Virus record (IMG/VR): IMGVR_UViG_3300033073_001153
Span: 64,001 to 128,000 of that record
Strand: one strand, 5' to 3'
Length of the DNA: 64,000 nt
Origin: a virus
Taxonomy: Duplodnaviria; Caudoviricetes
In this document: piece by piece, positions 29,190 to 55,531 of the stretch
Layout of the letters: the number at the start of each line of letters is the position of its first letter
Position numbering within the stretch: position 1 is the stretch's first letter
The notes under the pieces: generated by a model
Told to the model about the DNA's origin: nothing
Databases searched by the model: none
Seen by the model: the letters and a program-made list of their open reading frames with translations, nothing else
Program-made: the position numbers and the translations under genes

Positions 29190-29708
29190 ATCATTCCTCT
29201 GTTAAAGGTGTAGGCAAATGTGCAGCCCCCAGTTTTCCGTTACGGTCGTCTGGTGACCGGAGCCGCTAGCCCTGACTCAGGGGTCCGGTTGCCACCGGAA
29301 AACGCTTGTCGCACGTCCTACGCTGGGGAGACCTCCCAGAACCCAGACCAGCGGAACTCGCTGGCCTACCCTGTATTCGGCATCCTACAGAATCCCTTAA
29401 ATGATTTTTTTATCATTTTTGTAAGTGCCTTTCTTTCGAAAGTTTACAAAGCAAAAAGATTTTCAAAGCCCTCTTCCGGTAGGGTCTTAAATAGTACCGG
29501 AGAGACTCACCGGAAACGCCCCGTAATTGAGCGGAAACGGCAATCCTAGGCCCGTTCGCTCGCCGGTAAGGTGAGTATAGCGGACAACCTAGAAACCCCC
29601 CTAGAATCGCCTTTAAACGCAAAAGTCTTGTAAGTGTCTATATTCTCGATACTTACGAAAGATAAAAAAAGTTTCGGATAGGCTTGACAAGGTAGGGTAG
29701 TGCCAGAC

Positions 29709-29814
29709 TAACCTATCGGCGGGGGGAGGGTCTGTCTGGGTACTTTTTCTATGTAAAAACAGGGGTTGACAAAGTAAACAATTCTTTATTAACCTATCGG
29801 CGGGGGGAGGGTCT
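29709..29814 (+). repeat. 25-bp direct repeat TAACCTATCGGCGGGGGGAGGGTCT
   Basis: Identical copies at 29709 and 29790; variants at 33173 and 33261. Confidence 0.85.
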
Positions 29815-29970
29815 AAGGTTTCCCTAGCATCGCAAAAAGGGGGCTTGACAAGTGTGGTAGACTAAGAGGGAGGGGGGAGGGAGAAGGGTTTTTATTTATA
29901 TTCTATAAGTTATGCTTATAGAGCATAATGAATATAAGGTATGCTTATAGAGTATAATGAATGTTCTGTA

Positions 29971-29986
29971 TGTTCCATGTGGAACA
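29971..29986. promoter_or_regulatory. parS-like palindrome
   Basis: TGTTCCATGTGGAACA versus parS consensus TGTTNCACGTGNAACA. Confidence 0.6.
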
Positions 29987-30041
29987 AAAGAGAACCCCCT
30001 ACACTCCGTAGAATGTAGGGGGTTGGGGGAACCGGACTCTG

Positions 30042-30338
30042 TTACTTGTCCAGAGCCACAAAGATGTTCCGGTCTTGTAGGGTTCGGATTTTTTCGAAAA
30101 GGCTTTCGATTTCTGGTGCTGCCATGTTCCAACTTTCTTCTTGGAGAATGTTCCGTATAGCCTTTTTGAATTCATCTGGATGAAAGTATGTTCCTTTCAT
30201 AACGCCTCCAAATGTGTATTCGCAATACTCATTGAATACGTCATCAAGACGAACTCCATCAGCACATTTGATAGTGCAGGGAATGAGAGAAGAAAAAGGA
30301 TAGAAGGTCATAGACTGGACGAGGTTTTCTTGGATCAT
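30042..30338 (-). CDS. Hypothetical early protein
   Basis: Directly downstream of the promoter at 30376. Confidence 0.7.
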   Translation of the reverse strand: MIQENLVQSMTFYPFSSLIPCTIKCADGVRLDDVFNEYCEYTFGGVMKGTYFHPDEFKKAIRNILQEESWNMAAPEIESLFEKIRTLQDRNIFVALDK

Positions 30339-30375
30339 AATGTTAGGAGTTGAGGTTTACGCTGACACTATCTTT

Positions 30376-30402
30376 ATCGGCAGAGTGTAGGGAATACTTT
30401 AG
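30376..30402 (-). promoter_or_regulatory. Example sigma-28-type promoter
   Basis: CTAAAG-tattccctacactct-GCCGATAA. Confidence 0.8.
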
Positions 30403-30556
30403 AACTTTTTTGTGTTTTTGTGCGCTGAGTTTGTGGGTAGGAGTCCTACGTTTTTGGGAGCGAGCGGGACTTTTTTGTTTGACTCGTGACTTTGTGATAA
30501 AAAAACGAATATGTTATAAATTCATTTTTAATAGAGGAATGAAAAAAGTATTGAAG

Positions 30557-30781
30557 TTATGAGCATGATGTGAATTCCACCTTTGCCTCGAAGCATTCTA
30601 TGTCTCTCCAGTCTTCCTCTTTTATGTCTAGAGGATCGCCTACTAATTCAGCCAGAGACTCTCCGGTTGTGTAGGTCTTTACGAGTCTCCAGACGGTGTT
30701 TGTGGAGGGGTGAAAAGAGAATCCTCTTTTCGTAAAATACGAAGAGGGCTTGACAATTTGTGTGATGTACTTCTCTTTCAT
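30557..30781 (-). CDS. Hypothetical early protein
   Basis: 74-aa ORF. Confidence 0.55.
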   Translation of the reverse strand: MKEKYITQIVKPSSYFTKRGFSFHPSTNTVWRLVKTYTTGESLAELVGDPLDIKEEDWRDIECFEAKVEFTSCS

Positions 30782-30841
30782 AAAAAAAGGAACACAAGGT
30801 ACGGTCGGGGGTTGCCGTACCTTGTGTTTGTGGGGGAGAGG

Positions 30842-31270
30842 TTAGACCGTTTCCAGATCCATGTTGAGGATCAGATTCGAAGCGGTGAAGGCGGCGGTGT
30901 CCCGCTCCTCTTCGGATTCGGCGGAAGTGAACTTTTCCAGAACTTCCTTGAGGAAATTGTAGTCCTCATTTTCAGAAGTCGGCGCATTTTCGTTCACCTC
31001 GAATTCGGTAAACTCCACTTCGTTCAGGATGTCTTCCGATACCACTTCTGATGCCACTTCTCCTTCGAGAGGGGCAAATGTGCTCTCCAGCTCCGCGACT
31101 AACTTAGACAGGTTGTTGCGGAGCGTCAGGTGATTCCCGACGTGCTTCACCGGAACGCATCCGGCCTTGAGGAGGTTGAACGTGTGCTTCTTTGACTCCT
31201 TTTCATAGGAGGAAACGATTTGAATGTCGCCAATGGAGAGAGTGCCGTTTTCGTTTTTGGTGATGCTCAT
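30842..31270 (-). CDS. Acidic early protein
   Basis: Glu-rich C-terminal half; promoter and hairpin cassette upstream. Confidence 0.7.
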   Translation of the reverse strand: MSITKNENGTLSIGDIQIVSSYEKESKKHTFNLLKAGCVPVKHVGNHLTLRNNLSKLVAELESTFAPLEGEVASEVVSEDILNEVEFTEFEVNENAPTSENEDYNFLKEVLEKFTSAESEEERDTAAFTASNLILNMDLETV

Positions 31271-31371
31271 ATGATTTTTTGTTTTTGGGTTTCTGAGTTG
31301 TGAACCGGAAGGGATCGAACCTTCCGGTATTATTGTAGTCGGCAGAGTGTAGAGGATTCTTTAGAATTTTT

Positions 31372-31668
31372 TTAGACTAGTTCTGCTTCTTCCTCTGATT
31401 CTTCGTAGTAGTGTTTGGCAATTTCTTCGAAGTCAACCTCATTCAAGTACTCGTCAACAATTTCACGAACGAAGCCACTTGCCTTGAGGTTGTCAAGCTC
31501 AAGCTCAAAAACAACGTTCTCGAATGCTTCTGCCATGTGTTTGACGCTGTTAAACACTATTCCGTGTTTTTTCTCTTCGGCCATGCTGTGGAAAATTTCT
31601 TCGAATCGGGAATAGATTACCCACGTTTGTTTGTTCGACCATCCGTTGTATGTAGTAGGAGCGTTCAT
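31372..31668 (-). CDS. Acidic early protein with YNGWxN motif
   Basis: TYNGWSNKQTW..VDFEEIA, a common phage hypothetical pattern. Confidence 0.7.
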   Translation of the reverse strand: MNAPTTYNGWSNKQTWVIYSRFEEIFHSMAEEKKHGIVFNSVKHMAEAFENVVFELELDNLKASGFVREIVDEYLNEVDFEEIAKHYYEESEEEAELV

Positions 31669-31752
31669 GTTATTTTTGGTTTGGGGTTCCGGTGAACCGG
31701 AAGGGATCGAACCTTCCGGTATTATTGTAGTCGGTTGTTTCTCGGCGGGACT

Positions 31753-31911
31753 TTAGAACTTTTTTGTAGAACCTGACATTTCCAGAAGAACTAGTGCCAA
31801 TCGCTCGGCAATTTGTTTCTTGACTTCATCAGTGATTCCTTCCTCAAGCGATACGCCTAATGCCCGTGCCATATCGACAACTTGCTCTTCAGTGAATTTT
31901 TCGGTTTCCAT
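31753..31911 (-). CDS. 52-aa early protein (not in the ORF track)
   Basis: METEKFTEEQVVDMARALGV.. between two promoter cassettes. Confidence 0.65.
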   Translation of the reverse strand: METEKFTEEQVVDMARALGVSLEEGITDEVKKQIAERLALVLLEMSGSTKKF

Positions 31912-31975
31912 AATGTTCTAAGGTTTCTGAGTGTGAACCGGAAGGGATCGAACCTTCCGGTATTATACTAATCGG

Positions 31976-32170
31976 TCAGGAATACTTTTTCTTTAGCGGT
32001 TTTCTGATGACCAGCTCAAATTTAGTTCCGTCTTGCATTACGACCAGATTGCAGTCTCGAAGAGTATCAACAAATGCGACATCTTGGTACACCTCGTCCA
32101 AAGTGTTTTTCCGGATACGAGCTTCCATGAGCATGTCGCCAATGAGTTCGAGCAGTTCTTGTTTTTTCAT
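31976..32170 (-). CDS. Hypothetical early protein
   Basis: Cassette upstream. Confidence 0.65.
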   Translation of the reverse strand: MKKQELLELIGDMLMEARIRKNTLDEVYQDVAFVDTLRDCNLVVMQDGTKFELVIRKPLKKKYS

Positions 32171-32268
32171 AATGTTATGTGTTTTTTTCTGAGTGTGAAC
32201 CGGAAGGACTGGAACCTTCCGGTATATTGTAGTCGGTTTTCTGTAAGGAAACTTTAGGAATTTTTTGG

Positions 32269-32451
32269 TTATCTTTCGACTTCAATTTCCACGGATTCAA
32301 TCACGTTCGGAAATGCGGTTTCCAAGTCGCGAATGGTCTGGAGATGTGCTTCCCAATCATGCACGGTGGATTCGTACTGATTGTAACTTTGGAGTGCGCC
32401 TACCAGATCGGCATAAGCACATTTAATGGCAATGAGTTGTTCGGAGTTCAT
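32269..32451 (-). CDS. Hypothetical early protein
   Basis: Promoter at 32492 upstream. Confidence 0.65.
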   Translation of the reverse strand: MNSEQLIAIKCAYADLVGALQSYNQYESTVHDWEAHLQTIRDLETAFPNVIESVEIEVER

Positions 32452-32514
32452 ATTAGAGAATAGTGTGTCTTACCCTTTTGGTACTATAGTATTCGGAACT
32501 TTACGGGAATCCCT

Positions 32515-32706
32515 TTAATCTTTTTTTAAGGTTTCGATAGTTTTTTCCAAGTACGCCCGAATTTCTGGAACATATGACAAATCTTTCAAGATACCACGAA
32601 GGTATCCAATCACATAAGACTCCCAAAATTCCGGCGACTTCTCAATACTCTTTTCTTTCAGAGTGTCAAGCATTTCGTAACAAATATCCAAAGATTTTTT
32701 CGGCAT
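32515..32706 (-). CDS. Hypothetical early protein, leaderless
   Basis: ATG 6 nt after GCCGACTA. Confidence 0.65.
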   Translation of the reverse strand: MPKKSLDICYEMLDTLKEKSIEKSPEFWESYVIGYLRGILKDLSYVPEIRAYLEKTIETLKKD

Positions 32707-32748
32707 ACCCAGTAGTCGGCATTTGTATTAAATATCTTTAGGAAAAAA

Positions 32749-33024
32749 TTAGGAAATATACTTCTTGACAATTCCCATTGTTAGCTTTCCTTGCATTATT
32801 CCAAATTCGCTGGAATAAATTTTTCTGAGCCATTGTCTAGCTTCTGGACAAGGCAAGCCCCTTTCTTTATTGACATTTTCGTTATATGACGGAGCGTTTT
32901 TAACTCCGCCCCCCTGAGACAAGTTAAATGCATTAAGATTCTTTTGCGTAATTGTAAAAGTCACAATAGCAGGTGTGCCACTAATCTGAGCTTCAAGGTT
33001 GGATTTGACAAGAGTAACTTTCAT
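32749..33024 (-). CDS. Hypothetical early protein
   Basis: Start moved to ATG 33024, downstream of the promoter at 33072. Confidence 0.6.
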   Translation of the reverse strand: MKVTLVKSNLEAQISGTPAIVTFTITQKNLNAFNLSQGGGVKNAPSYNENVNKERGLPCPEARQWLRKIYSSEFGIMQGKLTMGIVKKYIS

Positions 33025-33436
33025 GATTTTTAGAGGTTCGAGAGAAGCACTGTGCTCCGCCGTGTCTACTAATAGGCATTCCCCTTCTCCCACTTTAGGA
33101 AAAACTGAAAATCTTTTTTCTTTAGCTCTTTTTTTATTTTTCTTTTTTCTTGTACTAATAGAGGATTGTCATTAACCTAGAGGTAGGGGGGAGGGTCTAT
33201 CCCAAAATCAAAAAAGAAAAAAAGTACAAAAAAGTGCTTGTACTAATAGAGAATCCTATATAACCTATCGGTGGAGGGAGGGTCTGTCTCGAAACAAGAG
33301 AAACCCCACATGCACAAAACGCATAATACACTATACGCATAAAAACATATGCTATTCGTGTATATACAAAATACACATAAAGCAAAATACAGTATACACA
33401 AAAAACATAAAGACTAGAAGATCCTCTACTCTCCCG

Positions 33437-33452
33437 TGTTCCATGTGGAACA
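33437..33452. promoter_or_regulatory. parS-like palindrome, second copy, inside a hairpin loop
   Basis: TGTTCCATGTGGAACA flanked by GATCCTCTACTCT / AGAGTAGAGGATC. Confidence 0.6.
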
Positions 33453-33509
33453 TAACCCAGAAGAGTAGAGGATCACCAAAAAACGGGGAGTCACTCCGTC
33501 AAATTCCGT

Positions 33510-33776
33510 TTACTCCCCAGTCCATACAGTAGTTCCCACTCGAATAGAATTTATTTGTTCCCGTACAAACGTCTTATAACCCTTATTAGTCGCAGTAACA
33601 CTATAAACCGTAACACTGTCCGGCACAAAATACTTCTCACCCCCACGCAAATGCTTCTTCACCCCCAACCTACATGTATAATTCTTCGTCTCACCCTTCT
33701 TGTTAGTATACGAAATCGCAAAAAACTTTCCCTTCGTCGCCTTAATAATATTCAATGGATCAATCGTGTTATTCAT
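33510..33776 (-). CDS. Small SH3-fold-like phage protein
   Basis: KFFAISYTNKKGETK..CRLGVKKHLRGG..YKTF pattern. Confidence 0.55.
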   Translation of the reverse strand: MNNTIDPLNIIKATKGKFFAISYTNKKGETKNYTCRLGVKKHLRGGEKYFVPDSVTVYSVTATNKGYKTFVREQINSIRVGTTVWTGE

Positions 33777-34008
33777 AATATCTATTTGTTAATTACTGAC
33801 ACTAACTATATCGGCAGATTCTACTAAAACTTTAGCAATTTTTTACAGATAAATCTCTGGAGCGGATGCCTAGCACTTGTGGACGTAAGCGAGACTTGTA
33901 GAGGAGAACGAAACTTTTTTCACAAAGTCACGACTTTATTATATTTAAAAGTTTATAGTATACATTCGAATATACAAATGAATATAACATGTATTCATCT
34001 TTTTAGTC

Positions 34009-34170
34009 CTAGAGAGGGCATTTCAAATTATTGTAAAACTCTTCCTCAATCTTCCGCAACTCATTCATCTTAGCCACATACTCCTCGTCCGTAATAAGCT
34101 CACTCATGTAACTCCGGTCAATACGGTCAATCTGATTTTCAATGTAAATCTCAAACATCATTTCATTCAT
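34009..34170 (-). CDS. 53-aa acidic early protein (not in the ORF track)
   Basis: MNEMMFEIYIENQIDRID..; ATG 6 nt after ACCGATTA. Confidence 0.6.
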   Translation of the reverse strand: MNEMMFEIYIENQIDRIDRSYMSELITDEEYVAKMNELRKIEEEFYNNLKCPL

Positions 34171-34878
34171 ATCTTCTAATCGGTATTTTTTAGAGGTTCC
34201 TTTAATTTTTTGTTCGGAAAATTTAACGCTACTCTGAAAATCATCTTTTTTTTCCTAGACGGAGCATTTTTTGTAATACAGAATTTTAGGATTGACAATA
34301 GAAGAAAAATATTTTTTGGAGGGGTCGGGCTTTATAAAAGTCCAATATAATATTTAGTTTAAAATCTTCAGTATTGCAAGCCTTTTGTGAAAAAAGTTTG
34401 TGTCGGATTTTCAGAGTAAAATAGTGTCTATAAAAATTCAATAAAAAAAGACAATCATTAGTAAAGTTTTTTTGTATTGAACACATGTTCTGAGACTTTA
34501 TGTCGCACTATATGATAATAAAAAATGTCACAAAGTGGGGCAAAATGGGTTAAAGTGGGGCGGTTTTTTGTAGTAAGTGTATGGATTTATACAATAACCA
34601 GACTTATTATTAATACTAATAGAGGATTGTATATTAGTTGATAATGTTTACTATTAATAGGCTTTAGTAATTACTGGATCTTTGGCATGTCGTCTGATCT
34701 TTCGTGTGTCTGGTTGTTATTACTAGATAATCTTTTATGCAAAATTCTCAGGAGATACATCACTTTTTAATACATGAGTTCTTTGCCATTCTTTCACTCG
34801 TTTATGATATTCATCGTCTATTCGATACAATTCAGTTTTATACATATCGTATAAACTATTCTGTTTTCCGGCATGATG

Positions 34879-35376
34879 CTAAAATTGTGAGAGTACTCTA
34901 TTAACAAATTTTTCTTTTTGTTTTAAATCATTCCATTCTGGATAAGGCTCGCTGAGTCTGGGATGTTCGTCCATGAAATATTCTTCTAAATCTGGATGAT
35001 AAACATCACTTGGCTGTAATCTTGCTAATACTCGTATAGTGTCTTTTTGCAAGAGAGGTTCGCCGTCTGTGCCGTAACCTATTTCTTTGCCTTTTAATAG
35101 ATAAATGGGTCTTTCTGCCACGTCGATTAAAGTAACAACTTGATCATGATCCGCATCTTCTACGAACCATCTTTGATAATCCGGCCACCACTTTGCCCAG
35201 AAACACGAAATTCCCTTTTCGTACAAAGGCTCGTTTCCTTTTCCCACAATAGAATGACCGATTTTAGAAAACTTTCCCTCTGGGACATTGCCGAATCTTA
35301 TGTAGAACTGATCTTGTTCTGTGTTTTCTTTTAAAGTTTTTGTATAACTCTCCCAGATCATTTGTTCATCGTTCAT
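34879..35376 (-). CDS. MNDEQMIWE-leader protein
   Basis: YIRFG..EKGISC..GTDGEPLL; late box upstream. Confidence 0.7.
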   Translation of the reverse strand: MNDEQMIWESYTKTLKENTEQDQFYIRFGNVPEGKFSKIGHSIVGKGNEPLYEKGISCFWAKWWPDYQRWFVEDADHDQVVTLIDVAERPIYLLKGKEIGYGTDGEPLLQKDTIRVLARLQPSDVYHPDLEEYFMDEHPRLSEPYPEWNDLKQKEKFVNRVLSQF

Positions 35377-35506
35377 TTTAGTATTTAACAGTACGCTCGG
35401 ATCTTTAATATATCCAAGGGTTTTTAATGATTAGTAGTTACTAATAGAGGATTGTATATTAATTAGTAATCTTTATTACTTTTAGTTCCTTGACATCTTT
35501 TTCTCC

Positions 35507-35728
35507 CTACACGGAGCATTTATTCGTAGTATCGCTTTCTCGCTCGCTTGCTTGGTATCCTGTATTAAACCCTTCTGTATATGAATTCAAATGTCTTGTT
35601 TTATCCCAAAGATTAAACTCTCTTAATGACCAATGACCTGTTTTGACCCATTGGTACGCTTGATTAACCGAAATGTTTAGTATTTCTTCTTTTGTATTAT
35701 AAGAATCAATATTCATATTACTTAACAT
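35507..35728 (-). CDS. Hypothetical protein
   Basis: QAYQWVKTGHWSLREF. Confidence 0.6.
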   Translation of the reverse strand: MLSNMNIDSYNTKEEILNISVNQAYQWVKTGHWSLREFNLWDKTRHLNSYTEGFNTGYQASERESDTTNKCSV

Positions 35729-35999
35729 AATAATCTTTTGACATTAATTCACAGATGAACCAATTCTCAGTCTTAATGATTCGCTTAATTATCCTGAGAT
35801 TAATAGGACATCCCCATCGACCTTCTTTGGCAATCTCTCTAGCTTTCATTTTAGCACTAGCTTCGTCCTTAAAATGATAAGGTTCTCCGCTAAGAGTCTC
35901 ATGCAATTCATCCCATTTGTAGGTCATTTCTTCTGTCTTGTGATCGACATAACCTGCATGAAATTCGATTGTGTAATATTGTTCTTCTTTATGTATCAT
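35718..35999 (-). CDS. Hypothetical protein
   Basis: Operon-like run. Confidence 0.6.
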   Translation of the reverse strand: MIHKEEQYYTIEFHAGYVDHKTEEMTYKWDELHETLSGEPYHFKDEASAKMKAREIAKEGRWGCPINLRIIKRIIKTENWFICELMSKDYYVK

Positions 36000-36013
36000 A
36001 AAACATCGAGCAT

Positions 36014-36223: not shown

Positions 36224-36271
36224 GTCATTACTATCTCACATTAGTTTCTTTTTGTCTACATCTTTCGCTCC

Positions 36272-37643: not shown

Positions 37644-37758
37644 ATCTAGTAGTCGGCAGGTTCGGTCGTCGGGTTTAGGAAAATTTTTAAAAATTTTGTT
37701 AGACTGTACGTCGAACTTTTTTAATGATTAGTTGTTATTAATAGAGGATTGTATATTA

Positions 37759-39141: not shown

Positions 39142-39216
39142 AGTGTTCGAGGTTTTTTGTTGTTCCTTAACGTGTATCTAGTAATCGGAAGAATTTCTGG
39201 AAACTTTAGGAAAAAA

Positions 39217-39477: not shown

Positions 39478-39557
39478 GACTATATATCGGCAGGTTCGGT
39501 CGTCGGGTTTAGGAATTTTTTAAAAAAATTTTCTTTCGACTCTAGATCGGGGAGCAT

Positions 39558-40837: not shown

Positions 40838-40913
40838 TTTTGGATTTTTGGTTGGTTGTTGGTTTAACTAGCGTATCTATATATCGGCAGATCTCGGAGA
40901 AACTTTAAGTTTT

Positions 40914-41207: not shown

Positions 41208-41274
41208 ATTTGGATTTTAATGTTTCGCTGACAACATATATATCGGAAGTTCTGGGGGGAACTTTAGGAATTTT

Positions 41275-41595: not shown

Positions 41596-41669
41596 ATTGT
41601 GTTTTTGGTTAGGGATTTTCTACTGTACCTATATATCGGCAGTTTTGAAGAAGACCTTTAAAACTTTTT

Positions 41670-41918: not shown

Positions 41919-41982
41919 TTTTGTTGGTTGGTTTTTGGTGTACTTGTATATCGGTAGTTCTGGGAGGAACTTTAGGAATTTT

Positions 41983-42156: not shown

Positions 42157-42248
42157 GTCTATTAGTCGGCAGATTTTGGAGAAACTTTAGGAATTTTTTT
42201 AATCTTCAGTATTATATCATATTTTTATTCAATCTGTAAATATGTCAT

Positions 42249-42890
42249 ATGGCATATTATAGTCCGTATTTTCATAAAACAAAAAATAGATGGGTAATAT
42301 CTTTTCCTGCTGGAATTTTGAATATTAAAAGGACTACAAGATCTTTCAAAACAGAAGAAGAAGCAAAAAAATTCGTATTAGAAATTATACCAGATGCTTA
42401 TGATGTAAAACTAGAAATTGAAAGAGAATGTTTAGATTGTAAACAAATATTACCTGTTGAATATTTTAAAAAAGGTTATAAAAAAATATGCAGATCTTGT
42501 CTTAATAAAAAAAGAAGAATTGATTTAAATGAACGTAGGAAAAATAATATTTGCTCATGTTGTAAAAATATTAGACTGCGTAAATCCGAATTTTGTTACG
42601 AGCACTGGTTTAAGAAAACATCCCAAAGATATTTTGGAAATGGTAATTATACAATTGATTTAATAAATTTATATGAAAAACAAAATCGTAAATGTATTTA
42701 CACTGGAGTAAATCTAATCCCAAATGAAAACATGAGTTTAGATCATATAATTTCAGTACACGATAATAAAGAATTGTATAATAATATAAAAAATGTTCAA
42801 TGGGTACACAAAGACATTAATTTAATGAAGAGCAAATTTTCACATGACAACTTTATCAAGCTATGCAAACATATAGCCAATAGATTCTAA
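42249..42890 (+). CDS. HNH homing endonuclease
   Basis: CxxC pairs, QNRKCIYTG, SLDHI..NVQWVHKDINLMK; opposite strand to its neighbours. Confidence 0.8.
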   Translation: MAYYSPYFHKTKNRWVISFPAGILNIKRTTRSFKTEEEAKKFVLEIIPDAYDVKLEIERECLDCKQILPVEYFKKGYKKICRSCLNKKRRIDLNERRKNNICSCCKNIRLRKSEFCYEHWFKKTSQRYFGNGNYTIDLINLYEKQNRKCIYTGVNLIPNENMSLDHIISVHDNKELYNNIKNVQWVHKDINLMKSKFSHDNFIKLCKHIANRF

Positions 42891-43582: not shown

Positions 43583-43619
43583 AGTACTGTATCGGTCAAT
43601 TGTTCGTGGTTCTTTAGAA

Positions 43620-43832: not shown

Positions 43833-43873
43833 GCCTAGTAATCGGCAGAATCTAAAAATTCTTTAGAAATTTT

Positions 43874-46105: not shown

Positions 46106-46108
46106 ACA

Positions 46109-46625: not shown

Positions 46626-47027
46626 TTATTTCAGTTTTCTTGCTAAGAATGATCTTAGTTTGTTTTTATTTGTTACTTTGAAAGTGTAACAATAATAATC
46701 GCTCATTACCATCAATCTTTGGTTTTCTTCAGAAGAACCAATCACCGGATTGAAACCCCATGTTTTAAGATATTCTTTCTGTCGGTTCGTAGTAATATCA
46801 ATCTTGCGATTATATCGGTGAATAGGATCGTGTTTATTTAAGACGTGTGCGGAAACATCATTCCAAACTAATTTAATAAAGAAATCAACTCCAATAAACA
46901 ATTTAGTTTTATCTTCTGCCAAGAAAAGATTAGGAACTAATTCAGTTAGATTTTTATGTTGATTCTTGATTCGCTGAATCGGAATCATTTTATAATCATT
47001 AATATCGAAGTTATATTTGTAGTCCAT
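46626..47027 (-). CDS. Hypothetical protein (divergent KIKYGI-like end)
   Basis: LKTWGF..FKVTNKNKLRSFL. Confidence 0.55.
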   Translation of the reverse strand: MDYKYNFDINDYKMIPIQRIKNQHKNLTELVPNLFLAEDKTKLFIGVDFFIKLVWNDVSAHVLNKHDPIHRYNRKIDITTNRQKEYLKTWGFNPVIGSSEENQRLMVMSDYYCYTFKVTNKNKLRSFLARKLK

Positions 47028-47333: not shown

Positions 47334-47343
47334 ATAGAATCTA

Positions 47344-47649: not shown

Positions 47650-47723
47650 TTTATTTTTTGGTTTTTGGCTTGGTTGTTTGGGTTTCACTGACATCTATAT
47701 AATCGGTAGGTTCCGAAAAAAGT

Positions 47724-48062
47724 TTAGTTAATTTTTTCCAAAGTTACACGGGAAATTCCACTCTTGACAATTCCTAGTCTCCGTGCAGCGACTAGGTTAA
47801 GATCTACAATACGGTTTTTAGTATATGGGCCACGATCCTCCACAACAGCCACAACCGTCTTTTTTGTGCGGTGACTGGTGATTTTGACCCTAGTGCCCAT
47901 AGGCAGGGTTTTATGAGCAACAGCAGGCAGGTGACGAACGAGTGGTTTTCCAGTAGCGGAACGAGTGTTTTCCGACCCGTACCAAGAAGCGACACCTTCT
48001 TGTTTATAGTTTGCTTCAGATACCGTAGGAATCAACATTAGGAAAAATAGGATTTTCTTCAT
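47724..48062 (-). CDS. rlpA: RlpA-like lytic transglycosylase (DPBB fold) with signal peptide
   Basis: GVASWYG, AVAHKTLPMGT, VEDRGPY..RIVDL..AARRLG. Confidence 0.88.
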   Translation of the reverse strand: MKKILFFLMLIPTVSEANYKQEGVASWYGSENTRSATGKPLVRHLPAVAHKTLPMGTRVKITSHRTKKTVVAVVEDRGPYTKNRIVDLNLVAARRLGIVKSGISRVTLEKIN

Positions 48063-48099
48063 AACAAGATATCGGCGGAATTTTAGAAAACTTTAGAAA

Positions 48100-48483: not shown

Positions 48484-48502
48484 AGATTAATAGTTACTAT
48501 AA

Positions 48503-48955: not shown

Positions 48956-49400
48956 AAGTTTTATATTCTAATTTAAATTTCGAATCATACAAACCATTTG
49001 AATATTTCTCGCAACAAAAAGAGCAAGAAAGTTTATTGTTGTAAGGTAATTCGTTGCGTGTGTGATGATAACCACAAGATCCACAGATTGCCAGATATTT
49101 TTCAGAAATATTTGCTCCGTGAATTTCACCGGAACAACCGATTTCTCTTGCAACTCTTTTCCATTTTGTTCCGTGTTTAGATTCGTAACCACAAATGGCA
49201 TGAGCCACTTCGTGTAGTATTGTATCTAAAATATATTCATGGCTACATCTTGAAAGATAATGCGAAAGTTCTATGGTTTTATAGGAATGTCTACAAATGC
49301 CAGACCATTCATTATGTCTTGTGTTTATATTACACTTCCAATCATTTAAACCATATTTTGTTAATATATCTTGGCAAAGATTTTTATATTCAATCAACAT
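48945..49400 (-). CDS. SprT-like zinc metalloprotease
   Basis: GIC..IELS..TILHEVAHA..HGTKWK, CxxC pairs. Confidence 0.85.
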   Translation of the reverse strand: MLIEYKNLCQDILTKYGLNDWKCNINTRHNEWSGICRHSYKTIELSHYLSRCSHEYILDTILHEVAHAICGYESKHGTKWKRVAREIGCSGEIHGANISEKYLAICGSCGYHHTRNELPYNNKLSCSFCCEKYSNGLYDSKFKLEYKTYEI

Positions 49401-49732
49401 TAAATTTCGAACGGAACGATGTTGGATTTGGAAATGAATCTAGGCTGATCATATTCGACAAAATCCTGTTCAAGTTCACAAGAATAACCCAATTCACTGA
49501 GTGCTTCGAAACAAGCACGATGGTACATATATTCCATGAATTGATATACTGATTTACCGGATTCTTTTTCAATCAATACATATTCATGTACATTACCATC
49601 ATCAGTGTTGTGATTCAAACGATAACCAATTTCATTTAGTGCTCTTTCGAAAGGATTATCCAATTCTTCTTGAGAAGAGAACTTATATCTTTCGCGTGGA
49701 TCTAGATCGTTTGTGATAATATAGGTATTCAT
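49400..49732 (-). CDS. Hypothetical protein with internal duplication
   Basis: ERALNEIGY / EALSELGY. Confidence 0.6.
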   Translation of the reverse strand: MNTYIITNDLDPRERYKFSSQEELDNPFERALNEIGYRLNHNTDDGNVHEYVLIEKESGKSVYQFMEYMYHRACFEALSELGYSCELEQDFVEYDQPRFISKSNIVPFEI

Positions 49733-49738
49733 AGTTAT

Positions 49739-50110
49739 TTATTTTCCAAAAACAAGTCTGTTGTATTCTCTGTTTGCTGCTCTTTCGTCTAATTTTTCCA
49801 AGTGATCAAATGCTGCTGATTCTTTAGAGGCTTCGTCAAGAAGAAAGTTATAAACGTCTTCGTATTTGTCTGCCACTTCGTTGTAATCGTCGGACTCCTC
49901 ATCGACTCCTTCCATCCATCCATCTGGAAGTCTGACACAAAGAGTTCCGTCCATTTTTGCTTCAGCAAGACCAAAGTCTTTCATATAAGACAGTAACTCT
50001 TTATGTGAAATATGTTGGTAGTATATTTCTTCCATCTGATATTCCCAATCATGGGATTGGATTTTAGATTCGATTTTATTCAACAATTCCAAACACTTTT
50101 GTTTATTCAT
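49739..50110 (-). CDS. Acidic hypothetical protein
   Basis: Asp/Glu-rich ORF. Confidence 0.6.
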   Translation of the reverse strand: MNKQKCLELLNKIESKIQSHDWEYQMEEIYYQHISHKELLSYMKDFGLAEAKMDGTLCVRLPDGWMEGVDEESDDYNEVADKYEDVYNFLLDEASKESAAFDHLEKLDERAANREYNRLVFGK

Positions 50111-50123
50111 AATTGTGTTTTAA

Positions 50124-50363
50124 TTAAGCAACTGGGCAAAAGATTCGTCCAACATAAATGTTATCTTCATACACCGGAAAAGATCCGTCTGGATTTGGAT
50201 CTTGGTTATCATAATAATAACCGTCTTTAAGAAAGACATCTTCCAACTCTTTTCCAAAAATAGGAGGATCGTTATATACTCCTTCTTCGTTACATGTTCT
50301 AAAAAAGGCAAACACGTTTTCGGAAAACATAACGTCACGGTAGAGAATGATGTTCTTGGTCAT
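50124..50363 (-). CDS. Hypothetical early protein, leaderless
   Basis: ATG 6 nt after ACCGATTA. Confidence 0.65.
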   Translation of the reverse strand: MTKNIILYRDVMFSENVFAFFRTCNEEGVYNDPPIFGKELEDVFLKDGYYYDNQDPNPDGSFPVYEDNIYVGRIFCPVA

Positions 50364-50404
50364 ACTAAGTAATCGGTAGTTTCTGGACTTTCTTTAGCAG
50401 TTTT

Positions 50405-51157
50405 TTAAATTAAATGCGTATCGATGATGTTCCGCTTTCCGTTCTCGTCGATCTCTAACAATTCCGACATATACACCCTCGCACCGCTTGTGTCAACATT
50501 TGTGATGGACGATTTTGTATTGTCATCCTCGATGGTAGTGATCCGGTAAATTGGAGTGTGTCCGACAACTTGACGCATACCACTAATCAATTCTAAATCA
50601 TGCCAATCTTCCCAAAGAATTGAACCTACTGGACTTATACCACCTCTTTTGTGCGAAGCTGCCCAAATAGCATTATCAGTTGAATCACGAATTTTTAATT
50701 TTTCAATAGAATGATCAATAATTCTTTGAACATTTTCAATCGTTATACCTTCTTTTAATGGATGCTGAAACCAATACTTTGTAATACCAGCATGTGAAAA
50801 CCAATAGCCATTTTCAAAATGAAAGTATTTAAGTTTATTCCAATCTTCTATTGTCAATACTTCATTAATACTAGTTTTTTTTGCCGTAGAAAATCCACTA
50901 CACATTGCAGTAAAATGTGGATGGTAGTGCAGCGTATGATTTCCGTATAGATATACCCAATCTGGAAATTCATTCATTGTCTTTTTCATAAAAGCGGCCA
51001 TCGCAGCATTTATTTCAGGAGTGTCTCCAAATTGATCATACTCGTCACCTATAAAAATAAATTTATGAGTTTTATAAAACTTATCAATAATTCTTTGAAC
51101 TTTTTCAAAGTGTGTATGTTGATCTGGTATTATTAATAATTTTTGTTCGTACTTCAT
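50405..51157 (-). CDS. Calcineurin-like metallophosphoesterase
   Basis: PDQH, GDEYD, GNH, SHAG, VVGHT. Confidence 0.85.
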   Translation of the reverse strand: MKYEQKLLIIPDQHTHFEKVQRIIDKFYKTHKFIFIGDEYDQFGDTPEINAAMAAFMKKTMNEFPDWVYLYGNHTLHYHPHFTAMCSGFSTAKKTSINEVLTIEDWNKLKYFHFENGYWFSHAGITKYWFQHPLKEGITIENVQRIIDHSIEKLKIRDSTDNAIWAASHKRGGISPVGSILWEDWHDLELISGMRQVVGHTPIYRITTIEDDNTKSSITNVDTSGARVYMSELLEIDENGKRNIIDTHLI

Positions 51158-51186
51158 AAATTTAGAAATAAATGATAAATATTTGT

Positions 51187-51433
51187 ATGAAAAAATTTAA
51201 AGGAATTATTCATACTGACTATCACAGTAGTATAGTAGAAAGATATTGTAAAGGAGAATCTTCCGTAAAAAATTGCTAAAGATTTTAATGTTTGTTATCA
51301 AACAATTTTAAAAATAATAAGATTTTACAAAAAACCTGTTAAAACCGGAGGTTTTTATAGCAAACGATTTAATTTTGATGATAATTTTTTTGAAAATATC
51401 GATACCGAAGAAAAAGCTTATCAACAAAAATAA
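51187..51433 (+). pseudogene. Frameshifted, truncated homing-endonuclease remnant
   Basis: Removing one A near 51270 gives YCKGESSVKIAKDFNV..FFENIDTEEKAY, then a stop. Confidence 0.6.
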
Positions 51434-51447
51434 TTATATAGTTATTA

Positions 51448-51924
51448 CTAATTGACCTTGTAAATGAAACTATATTCGCTATTATATTTTCCGTTGTTAA
51501 ATTTACGACAGCACCTTGAACATGCTGTATTTGCTCTACGATTAGTTTGAAATGTGTACTCGCAATTACGACAAATTGCCGTGTATTTGTACGGAGCATT
51601 CATAACACCGCACCGTTCGCCATTACAACCAATTTCGATTGCTTTAGAACGCCACACATTGTTGTGTTGGTGCCGACATCCTACGATAGCATGAGCGATT
51701 TCGTGTAGTAAAGTGTTTTTAACAGCTTCAAACGGACTGTTATTCACATGCCAGATACTCAATTCAATAGATTTGTTATATTCTTTACAAACGCCCAGTC
51801 TTGAGCGGTTGTCGTTGAAATAAAACTGCCATCCTTTTTCCAGCAGATTGTATTCATGCATCAGTTCGTAAGCCATCTTACGAATGACCAGTTGAGTGAC
51901 AGTAGAGGTGGCTTGTGTTCTCAT
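51448..51924 (-). CDS. SprT-like zinc metalloprotease
   Basis: RLGVC..IELS..TLLHEIAHA..HNNVW. Confidence 0.85.
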   Translation of the reverse strand: MRTQATSTVTQLVIRKMAYELMHEYNLLEKGWQFYFNDNRSRLGVCKEYNKSIELSIWHVNNSPFEAVKNTLLHEIAHAIVGCRHQHNNVWRSKAIEIGCNGERCGVMNAPYKYTAICRNCEYTFQTNRRANTACSRCCRKFNNGKYNSEYSFIYKVN

Positions 51925-52008
51925 GGTAGTTCAATGTCCTACCTATCTATCGGCAAAACCGGAGAATCTCTTTAGCAAATTTTTGAGATTCTCCGGTTTT
52001 TTAGTTTC

Positions 52009-52320
52009 TTATTTTTCTTTCAATTTGCACCAAGTACACCGTCTTCCTTCTTCACCCTCGTGATAGGAAAAAACTCCAATACTACAACTTTGACAATGTC
52101 GAGCCATTTCGGGAGTTTGTCCTTCAATCGTTGAAGCATAATTAGCTTCGTAACTTTTCGGAACATTCCTTGGACATTCAGTAATAATATTAGAATCATC
52201 CTTTGAATTAAGAATAACTGTTGGATATTCCTGTTTATTCTTCACTACACTTTTTTCTTGTACTCCAAACAATGCAGCACTAACTCCAATCAAACAACTT
52301 ATTAGAACTAACTTTTTCAT
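52009..52320 (-). CDS. Exported Zn-ribbon protein
   Basis: Signal peptide; CQSC..CTWC. Confidence 0.55.
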   Translation of the reverse strand: MKKLVLISCLIGVSAALFGVQEKSVVKNKQEYPTVILNSKDDSNIITECPRNVPKSYEANYASTIEGQTPEMARHCQSCSIGVFSYHEGEEGRRCTWCKLKEK

Positions 52321-52475
52321 TATTATTTTGCGTTTTTGTTTTTCAAAAATTCAGCCCATTTAATAATAGTTTCTCGATCAAACTTGCGAGCACTTTCCCA
52401 CTCATTAAGTTTTTTCAAAAAATTAGTAGCTTCTTCGAGCGTCATTTGTTCCGGTTTTTCTTTTTCTTTTTTCAT

Positions 52476-52667
52476 TTAACCTTGTTCAATTTCAAGTGCT
52501 TTGACTCGATTAGATACTTTGTTCAAGGTTCCAGTAATAGCAATTCCCAATTCAGTCTTATCTTGTTCACGCGTGAGAACTTCTACGATATAACGTACCT
52601 GTTCCATTGCGGAATGATAACCAATCCTGTATTGTTCGGTTTGTTCGACTTCGATGTTATTGTTCAT
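52476..52667 (-). CDS. Hypothetical protein
   Basis: 63-aa ORF. Confidence 0.5.
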   Translation of the reverse strand: MNNNIEVEQTEQYRIGYHSAMEQVRYIVEVLTREQDKTELGIAITGTLNKVSNRVKALEIEQG

Positions 52668-52706
52668 AATGGTTAATTTAATGAATTAGTTTTGTTTTTT
52701 GGTTAA

Positions 52707-52742
52707 AAAGGGAAGGGAACTTTTTATCATTCCCTTCCCTTT
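52707..52742 (-). terminator. Terminator after the DUF932 gene
   Basis: AAAGGGAAGGGAA / TTCCCTTCCCTTT followed by a T-run on the minus strand. Confidence 0.7.
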
Positions 52743-52752
52743 AAGGGGGAAT

Positions 52753-53766
52753 TTAGTTGAGAAGCAAATCCATTGCCTGTTGCTTCATTCGAGCACCTGC
52801 CCCAAGAATTGATCGTTCGAAACGTGCTTCAGCTTCGATAGAAATTCCTTCGTCAGAACGATTCTTACGAGCCTCCGTAAGGCGACCACCTTGATGATGA
52901 TCTACATATTCGGTAACCGCATTGAATAGATCCCATTTAGTACGACCATTGTTTCCCTTACCAGAAGTAAACAATGTGGCGATGTCATTACGACGATTGC
53001 TTGTACGAGTGGAGATTCTTCCTGTTTCTGGATTCAATTCGGCAGGAATTAGCGTATTTACAAATCCTTCAACATAAGACTTTGTAACTTCTTCTTCAGC
53101 AAGCTTATTCATTACAATTTGAAGATCATCGTAGAATGCGTTTGCAAATCCAAGAACTTTCGCAGCTTCATTCTTCTTTTCTGCAAAGTTTTTACGATGA
53201 TAAATCTTGAAACAATTTGTGTGGTTTCTAAGAGCTGCATTAAAAGTATTTTGGCATACGCACCTTACAGGCGTAATACAACCTGTCAATGCCTTTGATC
53301 CATCGTGACTTGTAAAGAACAAAACTTTCTTAACAGTCGTGTCATCTGGATTAGAATTTAGAAACAACTTTCCTTCCAACTCAGCCTGCATGAATACCAT
53401 ACGACCACCCTTCAACGATCCAGCAGTATCCCAAACTGCCTTACCAGAACCGATAATTTCATCGAAGAAACTAAATGCTTCGAGATTTTGGATCGGAGTG
53501 TAGCGAGCACTCATAATGGACAACGGATTGTAATTGTCTTTGCGACGAACAAGGAACTGATCCGGAACTTCCATCAGTTCATTGTCCAAAGGATTCTGGT
53601 GATACACCGGAACCTGCTCGACTTCCCAATCGAGAAGTGCTTCCTTGATTGCCTCCTCTGCCGTCAACTGACGATCAGAGAGTTGACCGAGTTGATGCCA
53701 TCCGCGAGTAACTGCTGAAAAGAATTCAGTACGTCCGTCTTCGCGTTGTGTGAGTTCGTGTGCCAT
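52753..53766 (-). CDS. DUF932-family protein
   Basis: WHQLG, YTPIQN.EAF, TAGSL.GG, TSHDGS, TPVRCVCQNT, WDLFNAVTEYVDH; start MAHEL at 53766. Confidence 0.88.
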   Translation of the reverse strand: MAHELTQREDGRTEFFSAVTRGWHQLGQLSDRQLTAEEAIKEALLDWEVEQVPVYHQNPLDNELMEVPDQFLVRRKDNYNPLSIMSARYTPIQNLEAFSFFDEIIGSGKAVWDTAGSLKGGRMVFMQAELEGKLFLNSNPDDTTVKKVLFFTSHDGSKALTGCITPVRCVCQNTFNAALRNHTNCFKIYHRKNFAEKKNEAAKVLGFANAFYDDLQIVMNKLAEEEVTKSYVEGFVNTLIPAELNPETGRISTRTSNRRNDIATLFTSGKGNNGRTKWDLFNAVTEYVDHHQGGRLTEARKNRSDEGISIEAEARFERSILGAGARMKQQAMDLLLN

Positions 53767-53930
53767 AACTTGCTTTCTGTTTTTGTTTGTTTTTGGTTTT
53801 TGTTTTCTGCGAACCAGATTCACTGGCGTATCTAGTAATCGGCATTTTCTTGACCGACTTTAGTTTTTTTTTCCTTTTTCTTTCTCCGTCTGGTTTTTCA
53901 GAGGAGAATTTCGAAGGTGTTAGGACTGTA

Positions 53931-54131
53931 CTACAGCTTTTTGCGTTTGTCTACAACTTTTTTTGGATTCTGTTTCTTTTTTGTTTCGAAGAAACTCCAG
54001 TCCACCGGAGTTGGTGGTTCTTGTGCAAGAAAATTGATAAGTTGTATACAGTTCTTATCTGTTTTTTCTTTTTCGTTTGTAGTTAAAATTTCTTTTTCTA
54101 CTTTTTCGATTGTAGAAATAGAATTTACCAT
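53931..54131 (-). CDS. Hypothetical protein
   Basis: 66-aa ORF. Confidence 0.45.
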   Translation of the reverse strand: MVNSISTIEKVEKEILTTNEKEKTDKNCIQLINFLAQEPPTPVDWSFFETKKKQNPKKVVDKRKKL

Positions 54132-54142
54132 CTTGTATTTAG

Positions 54143-54424
54143 TTAAATATCTTTAAATTTCGGGTTCCAACATAAATACCATTCATCATCAAGTGGTAAT
54201 ATTCCAATAATATCACCATTATTAGTATCATGTAAAAAACTAAACTTATTCATAGACATTTTGCTTACATTATAAATGCCTAATTTATCATAGAATGATA
54301 ATTTTAAAGTACTATCTTTAATAATAAGATCTACCTTTATATGTTTTTGCAAAACAATACCAAACTTTACAATTAATCCATCTTTTGTTAGATTAATATT
54401 ATTATAATTTGATATATTATACAT
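54143..54424 (-). CDS. Hypothetical protein
   Basis: TTGACA-N16-TATAAT at 54439-54466. Confidence 0.55.
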   Translation of the reverse strand: MYNISNYNNINLTKDGLIVKFGIVLQKHIKVDLIIKDSTLKLSFYDKLGIYNVSKMSMNKFSFLHDTNNGDIIGILPLDDEWYLCWNPKFKDI

Positions 54425-54501
54425 TATTAATAATTAATATTATAACATTAATTTTCTACTTGTCAATAGAAAAATTTTAACAAACTTAAAATTTTCTGAT
54501 G

Positions 54502-54571
54502 AACATGCGAGTTTATGGTAAACATGCGAGTTTATTATATAAACGCGAATTTAATATGAACACGAAAATTT
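54502..54571. repeat. Tandem repeat with about 19-bp period
   Basis: AACATGCGAGTTTAT twice plus two degenerate copies. Confidence 0.6.
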
Positions 54572-54576
54572 CGCCG

Positions 54577-54798
54577 TTAAAGTTTGTATTTCACTTTGCC
54601 AACTTTATATTTTTCTTTGTCTACGATTCTATATTGAACGTAGCGGTCTCGATTTTCGAAATTGGCTATGTGGACTATGCCGAGGTGTCTTTCGAAGTTT
54701 TTAAGCGTTACATCTTTGGTAGAACGGTGGATTGATATGTCCTTTAAAAAGTTCTCGTAGCTTTTATCGAAGGCTTCCATCATGAATGTTATTTTCAT
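54577..54798 (-). CDS. KIKYGI-family protein
   Basis: FERHLGI..IVDKEKYKVGKVKYKL. Confidence 0.65.
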   Translation of the reverse strand: MKITFMMEAFDKSYENFLKDISIHRSTKDVTLKNFERHLGIVHIANFENRDRYVQYRIVDKEKYKVGKVKYKL

Positions 54799-55112
54799 AC
54801 GTAAAATGTCCAGTGTTTGTTTTCGTATCCGACGTTAATTTGTCCCCAAAATTCAGAATTCTTTACTATTTTGTTTTTGTGGTTTCTTTTAAAATATAAG
54901 AGATCCGATTCAAATAGTTTATAATCCAGATTATTTGGTATTAAAATAGCCGATAAATCTTGTTGAAATTCGGCATTAATGATCCGGATTCCGTAATTAT
55001 TCCTCCATTCTTTACTTGAAATATAATCAGCAAAAAAAGAACTAGATTGACGAGAAATAAAAATCGCATAGTAATTAACAAATTTTTCAGATTCTAATAA
55101 TATGTTGTACAT
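54795..55112 (-). CDS. Hypothetical protein
   Basis: Coupled to the next gene. Confidence 0.55.
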   Translation of the reverse strand: MYNILLESEKFVNYYAIFISRQSSSFFADYISSKEWRNNYGIRIINAEFQQDLSAILIPNNLDYKLFESDLLYFKRNHKNKIVKNSEFWGQINVGYENKHWTFYV

Positions 55113-55114
55113 AA

Positions 55115-55447
55115 TTAATCTTGCCCATACAATTCTTCGTCTTTTAGGTTTAGTTCTTCTTTGTTGAGAAAATAGTAATGATCTTCTCTTTCTTCTGTGA
55201 AGCCTTCGGCATAGTAATAATCTAGTCGCTTTTCTAGTACATTACAAAGAATGTCATTGAAAATATCAACATCAACCACACAGCTTTTTCCCAGAGTGGA
55301 TTCGATCACTTCTAGATCTTTTTGTGTGATGTTCTGAATGTATGGAAGGTTTTTGGGAACCTTTCCTTTGTTCATGATGATGCTTCCAGTGATAATAGTT
55401 TCTGCCATGATCTTGGCAACATTAATGATAGGTTTGTCGTTTTTCAT
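55115..55447 (-). CDS. Hypothetical early protein
   Basis: Promoter at 55463. Confidence 0.6.
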   Translation of the reverse strand: MKNDKPIINVAKIMAETIITGSIIMNKGKVPKNLPYIQNITQKDLEVIESTLGKSCVVDVDIFNDILCNVLEKRLDYYYAEGFTEEREDHYYFLNKEELNLKDEELYGQD

Positions 55448-55531
55448 GTCTACATCATCTATATCGGCAGAATTTAGAGAAACTTTAGGACTTTTTTCAG
55501 TTCCGTAAGCCGTTTTAGGATAAATACTTAT

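Follow-up and report, generated by a model that had tools for sequence, protein, structure and literature searches.

The DNA analysed here (the window) is a stretch of 64,000 nucleotides, genome 64,001-128,000 of a 242,607-bp IMG/VR virus record rated 100% complete. A two-box element recurs along one of its strands in front of mostly small genes, and this raises the question of which sigma factor reads it. The record belongs to an uncultured freshwater phage, a distant T4-like jumbo phage that we call G0; G1 denotes its relative IMGVR_UViG_3300043464_001630, and G2, G3 and G5-G9 denote other phages. With modest confidence, we propose from sequence comparison that the 27 copies of the element are promoters of a non-sigma-70 class for a 26-kb block of accessory genes, and that they are read by a 169-aa sigma of the extracytoplasmic function (ECF) type encoded by the phage.

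The two-box array and its geometry

An earlier, sequence-only reading of the window had listed 26 such sites and suggested a motif scan. All 26 were found in place on the minus strand, the first C of CCGA lying 4 nt above the coordinate given for each, and a regular-expression scan of the whole record added a 27th at window 43589-43617, with the -10 sequence ACCGATAC. A two-block weight matrix (threshold of at least 16 bits), run over the 242,607-bp genome, then returned 27 distinct sites in one block, all on the minus strand, between 93.4 and 119.5 kb of the genome (window 29.4-55.5 kb). No copy occurred on the plus strand or elsewhere in the record, and shuffled sequences gave almost none at 20 bits.

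The consensus of the 27 sites is AAAAAA-tt-C-TAAAG-N14/15-(G16/A8/T3)CCGA(T19/C6)-W-A, followed by a conserved Y-W-A-G-R. Its two blocks hold 16.9 and 16.0 bits against the genome background, about 33 bits in total. The -35 box reads TAAA in 26 sites and TTAA in one, with G as the next base in 24. In the -10 box the CC is invariant and the following G is present in 26 of 27 (CCGA in 26, CCTA in one), because the site at 33070-33098 carries a CCTAT variant. The boxes are separated by N14 at 15 sites and by N15 at 12, which corresponds to TAAA-N15 and TAAA-N16, respectively, when counted to the G; a loose pattern with a mis-specified spacer (TAAA-N18-22-CCGA) showed no enrichment. We also considered chance, coding repeats and terminators as sources of the 27 elements and rejected them.

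The 27 sites all point in the direction of the genes and stand upstream of open reading frame (ORF) starts. An ATG-initiated ORF of 44-337 aa begins 5-65 nt downstream at every site except 29374-29401. Nine sites have the ATG exactly 6 nt past the octamer (binomial P = 2e-9, given an ATG frequency of 0.020); eight of them had already been recognised, and the additional site is the ninth. One further site (47700-47727) has its ATG at 5 nt. In sigma-28 and ECF promoters the -10 octamer ends at about -7. Therefore, transcripts from sites with the ATG 6 nt further on would begin at the A of AUG and be leaderless. This geometry implies predicted starts about 7 nt past the octamer, with approximately a third of the mRNAs leaderless or starting within a base of AUG. 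The other sites have A/C-rich leaders that lack a Shine-Dalgarno sequence. Among the genes of the block, DUF932, two SprT-like proteins and an AAA_33 kinase-like protein can be named, and the remainder are mostly small ORFans; a UvrD-like helicase gene lies in a GC-rich part just downstream.

The array is conserved in G1 (236 kb), which has 234 proteins in common with G0 at a mean identity of 76% (93% for the DNA polymerase). About 22 motif copies lie there on one strand between 22.4 and 47.0 kb, arranged as in G0, with the ATG at +6 in seven of 22 and with the CCTAT variant and the hairpin leaders (see below) also present. Most relatives are fragments. We searched 13 DNA-polymerase-related fragments and two DUF932-related loci for the motif and found no array, a result that is uninformative because the fragments do not cover the block.

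The resemblance to sigma-28 promoters that had been noted at the outset was borne out in both boxes and in the spacing. The class-3 flagellar consensus of sigma-28/SigD/FliA is TAAAGTTT-N11-GCCGATAA in Escherichia coli and CTAAA-N15-CCGATAT in Bacillus subtilis, and the phage element shares with it both boxes, the spacing TAAA-N15/16-GCCGAT and an implied start about 7 nt past the octamer. Judged by their sequence, the 27 elements are thus sigma-28-type promoters. However, unlike class-3 promoters, they occur in 27 copies with an A-tract, a third of them directly on start codons, and unlike sigma-28 systems G0 encodes no group-3 sigma; dependence of the motif on sigma-28 is putative. In its many conserved promoters, A-tracts, small ORFans, plastic region and duplicated cassettes (37650 and 39484), the block resembles the T4 early promoters and their promoter early stem-loop (PeSL) cassettes. 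Those promoters are of sigma-70 type, whereas neither TTGACA nor TATAAT, the hexamers of T4 early promoters and of the sigma-70 core, forms part of the G0 motif.

The lack of sigma-70 hexamers bears on a further explanation, that the boxes are not a self-sufficient promoter but an UP-like element plus a spacer or operator box, to which the alpha subunit of RNA polymerase or a phage DNA-binding protein would bind. This idea draws on phage G2, where similar boxes flank TTGACA upstream of TATAAT and CTAAAG lies at about -47 to -42, in UP-element territory. At the G0 and G1 sites, however, neither TTGACA nor TATAAT stands in a usable position, and the block shows no enrichment of sigma-70-like sites (89, compared with 78.7 +/- 8.8 in shuffles). 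We also tried a sigma-70 reading of the downstream TAnTAG and rejected it, as it would place the start inside ORFs and gives no correct spacing to any -35. Together with the fixed ATG offset, which fits the octamer as a -10 box, these observations make this explanation very unlikely.

A second phage sigma and its relatives

The sequence-only reading was correct that the window holds no sigma gene. It had suggested that the phage might encode a sigma-28-like factor elsewhere and that the rest of the genome be searched for a sigma region 2/4 protein. Only two sigma-like genes were found in G0, at genome 27.7 kb and 151.8 kb. The former encodes a gp55-like sigma of 150 aa and adjoins UvsW-like and gp47-like genes. 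The latter (genome 151,769-152,278, minus strand), 24 kb beyond the window, encodes a 169-aa protein that consists of Sigma70_r2 and r4 only (PF04542 and PF04545/PF08281), with no region 3. It scored 90.5 bits against TIGR02937 (sigma70-ECF; cut-off 42.9) without reaching any specific subfamily cut-off, and 31.5 bits, in region 4 only, against the FliA/WhiG model TIGR02479 (cut-off 189.6); its best solved relatives are the ECF sigmas SigL and SigW. By these domain matches it is an ECF-type (group 4) sigma, outside the sigma-28 family, and the G0 genome contains no sigma-28-family gene. The expected second factor thus exists outside the window, but it is of another type than had been supposed.

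Directly upstream of this gene is a conserved 59-aa zinc-ribbon ORF with a CxxC...CxxC pattern (L001:2167-2346; genome 152462-152641, minus strand), whose product may act as a partner of the sigma or regulate it. The DNA between the two is poorly conserved between G0 and G1. In both phages the operon is preceded by a strong terminator and a sigma-70-like site, TTGACA-N17-TAGGAT (TAGTAT in G1), which is conserved but lies inside an antisense ORF.

Homologues of the 169-aa sigma were sought more widely. Matches in cultured phages were weak and confined to Lak phage, and a single-protein search of IMG/VR returned nothing; a profile search found G1 and G6-G9, and many short metagenome contigs carry homologues that are 60-76% identical. 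The G1 sigma is 60% identical to that of G0, and those of G6, G7 and G8 are 47%, 44% and 39% identical; these three phages share 15-25 proteins with G0, the sigma being among conserved neighbouring genes.

Among cellular proteins, ECF sigmas of Verrucomicrobiota come closest to the phage sigma, at 30-37% identity (more than 581 stretches confirmed). They come from Rubritalea, Chthoniobacteraceae, Akkermansiaceae and Luteolibacter, and a few from Planctomycetota and Acidobacteriota. The sequence-only reading had pointed to the Planctomycetes-Verrucomicrobia-Chlamydiae (PVC) group by noting that Chlamydia keeps a sigma-28, and these relatives lend that hint only indirect support. Two peptides are shared by the relatives of the phage sigma: W[LM][FY][TV]VCRN, and KT[TS]SGN[IV]GF in the recognition helix of region 4. 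At 28 of 80 cellular loci the pattern [CT]TAA[GTC][AG]-N15/16-CGTT occurs on the sense strand within 260 nt upstream of the sigma gene, and its density there is 1.09 per kb compared with 0.016 per kb elsewhere (67-fold). This appears to be the picture expected of an autoregulated ECF promoter, such as that of B. subtilis SigW (TGAAAC-N16-CGTATA). In Rubritalea the sigma gene is followed by one for a probable anti-sigma, and the homologue in L122 is followed by a 424-aa protein. The cellular and phage motifs are alike in the T/A-tract, the CTAA(A)G box, the spacer length and a C-G-x-T core, and some cellular copies come very near the phage motif (L176, AAAATTTATCTAAAGTTTCTCCCAGCTCATCCGTT; L132; L115). 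As an observation in its own right, L114-L193 represent a large uncharacterised Verrucomicrobiota ECF family with an unusual recognition helix, SGN(V/I)GF, and the conserved upstream CTAAG-N16-CGTT; its Chthoniobacteraceae members show the variant CCAAGAAAG...GGTTA.

The phage sigma resembles ECF group 4 in having sigma-2 and sigma-4 domains and cellular homologues with a CGT-type -10 motif and a probable anti-sigma downstream. It differs in that the phage copy has no recognisable anti-sigma next to it and no motif copy in front of its own gene, and in that the array has CTAAAG rather than an AAC-type sequence at -35 and CCGAT at -10. The cellular-type pattern CTAAG-N-CGT showed no clustering in G0.

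These homologues also suggest a different arrangement, in which the host's own Verrucomicrobiota-type ECF sigma reads the promoters and the phage copy only adds to its activity or evades the host anti-sigma. The cellular family is widespread (more than 581 matches) and seemingly autoregulated from a related motif, with a probable anti-sigma next to it. However, the cellular -10 is CGTT and not CCGAT, the strict phage pattern is not enriched in the five Verrucomicrobiota genomes that we scanned, and ECF sigmas are normally held inactive. We regard this arrangement as highly improbable.

Arrays in G7 and G8 provide a further comparison. In these phages 15 and 14 copies, respectively, lie on one strand, each consisting of an A-tract, CAAAnATT, N11 and (t)GCGTAATAG, followed by a hairpin. 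G0-type sites are lacking in G7 and G8, as is a G7-type array in G0 and G1; this exchange of elements fits promoters that co-vary with each phage's own sigma. After GCGTAATAG, each unit continues with the hairpin GCCAGGGGCACCCCTGGC, a second hairpin CCCACAACCCTTTCGGGCTGTGGGG and then Ts, with palindromes that overlap the boxes, and the units may be small-RNA genes or promoter-plus-terminator units.

Which sigma would read the promoters

If the phage sigma is the reader, expression could proceed in three steps. Host sigma-70 holoenzyme would first transcribe the host-type promoters, including TTGACA-N17-TAGGAT before the zinc-ribbon ORF and sigma operon. The new sigma would then redirect host core polymerase to the CTAAAG-N14/15-GCCGAT promoters, so that the block, whose genes the sequence-only reading had called early-type, would be delayed-early or middle and not immediate-early. 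Finally, the gp55-like sigma would read the TAAATA late promoters. Good sigma-70-type promoters were found in G0 at window 54439-54466 (12/12 match) and at genome 138,255, 158,078 and 171,701; these indicate that the host primary sigma reads canonical promoters. TAAATA lies within 25 nt of the start of about 99 G0 genes, a late class that is largely leaderless too. AsiA and MotA, which serve the middle mode of T4, gave no PF09010 or PF09114 match in the G0 record.

Cascades of this kind have been described in other phages. Coliphage phiEco32 gp36 is a two-domain sigma whose cascade is comparable to that of SPO1 gp28. Two papers (PMC13401047, PMC9429907) summarise SPO1 gp28 as an early-expressed phage sigma that diverts host core polymerase to promoters of its own class, which precede a block of phage genes. 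By analogy, the proposed G0 sigma would give the polymerase access to such a class of its own. A separate promoter class is present in G0, whereas the site upstream of the sigma operon, which lies inside the antisense ORF, is only a candidate host-type promoter. Unlike those phages, G0 is T4-like and has gp55 for its late genes, its sigma is a PVC-type ECF sigma, its promoters are sigma-28-like, and the system is known from its sequence alone. Phage-encoded sigmas in T4-like jumbo phages have been noted in general (PMC7824862). We found no description of this array, or of the pairing of sigma and array, in the literature.

Several observations favour the phage sigma as the reader. It is conserved, occurs in G1 together with the array, and is otherwise without targets, as a search for a second orphan promoter class in G0 and G1 by dyad and k-mer enrichment yielded only coding repeats and the late TAAATA. 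Its cellular family has a related motif, and G7 and G8 have a separate array. The conserved sigma-70-like site and terminator before the sigma operon and the absence of AsiA and MotA point in the same direction, as does the fact that we found no precedent in the literature for a phage gene block placed on host sigma-28.

However, other results weigh against it. The motif is absent from the 2.5 kb upstream of the phage sigma gene, and therefore this sigma would not be autoregulated; nor is there a recognisable anti-sigma or anti-sigma domain beside it. Upstream of the cellular homologues, neither the full two-box core matrix of the phage (p = 0.50) nor the strict phage pattern was enriched. The phage -35/UP matrix was enriched there (p = 5e-19), but this is partly an effect of composition, inflated because intergenic DNA is AT-rich. 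The phage motif resembles the cellular CTAAG-N16-CGTT less closely than it does the universal sigma-28/SigD consensus (TAAAG-N14-GCCGATAA), and the G7/G8 element, which overlaps palindromes, may perhaps be no promoter. In addition, the unrelated lineage of G2, G3 and G5 (GC 40%) carries this pair of boxes, with unchanged spacing, within strong sigma-70 promoters. The composite form, TCTAAAG-N5-7-TTGACA-N3-4-G(A/C)CGATA-N8-10-TATAAT, occurs in eight of about 13 promoters of the G2 lineage. No G0-family sigma was found in the 57% of the genome seen for this lineage, which carries a two-domain sigma with a recognition helix dissimilar to that of G0. A shared host factor would explain the boxes of the G2 lineage more simply, and the perfect sigma-28 match and the composite promoters favour such a factor.

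The host factor that comes to mind, and that the sequence-only reading had offered as one of its two alternatives, is sigma-28 (FliA) holoenzyme. In that case the phage would imitate the class-3 flagellar signal of its host, the block would be expressed at once, only in motile, FliA-active cells, and the phage sigma would have other targets. We regard this as a serious alternative, though the less probable of the two. It is consistent with the match to TAAA-N15-GCCGATAA in both boxes, spacing and predicted start distance, and with the occurrence in G2 of the same two boxes, together with sigma-70 boxes, beside a different sigma family. It also receives support from a FliA-bearing Chthoniobacteraceae metagenome-assembled genome, whose sole strict CTAAAG-N14/15-NCCGAY match is situated between fliD and fliS, its octamer being followed by an ATG at 7 nt; therefore, a candidate host clade appears to use the signal with the same near-leaderless geometry. 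However, FliA exceeded the cut-off in only one of the five Verrucomicrobiota genomes tested, and sigma-28 is usually scarce and held by FlgM. Dependence on host sigma-28 would also leave the conserved phage sigma without a visible promoter class, the motif of the analogous G7/G8 array is not sigma-28-like, and we found no published case of a large phage gene block on host sigma-28. If it did hold, a large phage would tie a whole accessory programme to host motility, which would also be new.

Reading by the phage sigma and reading by host sigma-28 are not mutually exclusive. An ECF-fold phage sigma might have converged on sigma-28 specificity, host FliA reading the promoters at once in motile cells and the phage sigma later in any cell; we consider this combination unlikely. 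If it were true, the phage sigma could also fire host flagellar class-3 genes, and this dual-input design would exist in a second version, the composite sigma-70/two-box promoters of G2.

To our knowledge, pre-late timing in T4-like phages outside enterobacteria is poorly understood, and most of these phages lack MotA and AsiA. With its one small sigma gene, 27 near-identical promoters and fixed leaderless geometry, G0 offers a clean, testable case. If the pairing of phage sigma and array is true, then it would add an ECF-type middle sigma to the T4-like repertoire, give the first predicted promoter for a large uncharacterised Verrucomicrobiota ECF family, and provide compact orthogonal sigma/promoter parts.

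Coordinates, leaders and neighbouring features

The coordinates are collected in Table 1. Besides the 27 elements, the block holds a few host-type (sigma-70) promoters.

Table 1. Positions of the array elements and related features (window coordinates unless a phage is named).
Feature	Position	Strand	Description
Promoter-array block	29374-55502	minus	27 co-oriented two-box promoters, mostly small ORFans
Weakest copy	29374-29401	minus	TTTAAG-N-GCCGAATA; GC-rich structured leader; no nearby ORF; kept in G1 at 46965
Promoter	30374-30402	minus	CTAAAG-N15-GCCGATAA; leader start GTGTCAGCG
Promoter	31336-31364	minus	5' hairpin leader, about 31304-31328
Promoter	31728-31756	minus	5' hairpin leader, about 31696-31720
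Promoter	31969-31996	minus	5' hairpin leader, about 31937-31961
Promoter	32230-32257	minus	5' hairpin leader, about 32199-32223
Promoter	32490-32518	minus	TTAAAG-N15-TCCGAATA
Promoter	32713-32741	minus	ATG at 6 nt; leaderless 63-aa ORF, 32515-32706
Promoter, CCTAT variant	33070-33098	minus	GCCTATTA; same variant in G1 at 42884 and 44441
Promoter	33808-33835	minus	Leader start GTGTCAGTA
Promoter	34177-34205	minus	ATG at 6 nt; leaderless 53-aa ORF
Promoter	37650-37678	minus	ATG at 6 nt; spacer CCGACGACCGAACCT, as at 39484-39512
Promoter	39182-39209	minus	CTAAAG-N14-TCCGATTA
Promoter	39484-39512	minus	ATG at 6 nt; leaderless 86-aa ORF; duplicate of 37650 cassette
Promoter	40881-40908	minus	TTAAAG-N14-GCCGATAT
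Promoter	41240-41267	minus	Leader start TTGTCAGCG
Promoter	41633-41661	minus	TTAAAG-N15-GCCGATAT
Promoter	41948-41975	minus	CTAAAG-N14-ACCGATAT
Promoter	42163-42190	minus	ATG at 6 nt; sigma-70-like TTTACA-N18-TATAAT just upstream, 42211-42240
Promoter, additional copy	43589-43617	minus	Not in the sequence-only list; ATG at 6 nt; leaderless 96-aa ORF
Promoter	43839-43866	minus	ATG at 6 nt; best matrix score, 43.9 bits
Promoter	47700-47727	minus	CTAAAC-N14-ACCGATTA; ATG at 5 nt
Promoter	48069-48096	minus	ATG at 6 nt; leaderless 112-aa ORF, PHROG lipoprotein-precursor family match
Promoter	50370-50397	minus	ATG at 6 nt; leaderless 79-aa ORF
Promoter	51947-51975	minus	Before SprT-like 158-aa gene
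Promoter	53836-53863	minus	Before DUF932 gene (52753-53823)
Promoter	55461-55488	minus	First of the block in transcription order
Sigma-70 consensus	54439-54466	minus	Perfect TTGACA-N16-TG-TATAAT inside the block
G7/G8 arrays	L066-L069 (G7), 57.9-71.0 kb; L196-L197 (G8), 51.3-62.7 kb		14-15 units
G2 composite promoters	L213-L214, 35-29400		About 13 very strong sigma-70-type promoters; TCTAAAG upstream, G(A/C)CGATA in spacer

Four leaders open with a 9-bp hairpin, ACCGGAAGG-UUCGAUC-CCUUCCGGU, which is kept in G1 (L053:3842-3866 and two more) with one compensatory pair. The hairpin begins at the predicted 5' end of the transcripts from these four promoters, and its loop resembles a tRNA T-loop; it may stabilise the mRNA or serve as a tRNA-like handle. 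About five leaders open with (A/G/T)TGTCAG(C/T)G, and the longer sequence (A/G/T)TGTCAG(C/T)G(A/T)AAC is conserved at the transcribed start after several promoters (window 30355-30367, 33790-33800, 41222-41234 and 47682-47694). In three cases a stop within the next 5-10 codons rules this sequence out as an ORF start. The copies at 37650-37692 and 39484-39526 have the spacer CCGACGACCGAACCT and flanks in common, and this identity suggests that a promoter cassette, comparable to the mobile ones of T4-type phages, was duplicated recently.

The composite pattern of the G2 lineage recurs in many IMG/VR contigs (six copies in L254), single matches being near chance expectation. The phages that bear it carry yet other sigma families, including 149-aa mini sigmas with a group-3-like region 2 (L340 of G036 and L347 of G039) and, in others, 194-219-aa sigmas with an RpoD-like region 4 (TREAVRQ).

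Elsewhere in its genome, G0 has a sheath protein and a gp20-type portal, whose gene (L005, genome 51243-54365) is split by an intein (Intein_splicing match, residues 372-779). Its DNA polymerase is of family B, with best matches at about 30% identity to cyanophages and a pelagiphage, and no near-identical DNA was found among cultured phages.

Within the window, positions 25600-33000 form a GC-rich island (44-49% GC, compared with about 30% elsewhere) in which a codon-usage gene caller accepted no ORFs. It contains the UvrD-like helicase gene (26473-28041), the weakest promoter copy with its structured leader and the four hairpin-leader units. Scans of the window, island included, for tRNAs (ARAGORN) and against Rfam returned nothing. 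Structured RNA may be abundant in the island, or the island may be a recent acquisition. Finally, the gene at window 17526-18890 (genome 81526-82890, minus strand) encodes a 454-aa protein whose identity in G7 and G8 is 87-89%, compared with about 45% for other shared proteins; this gene has probably been exchanged recently.

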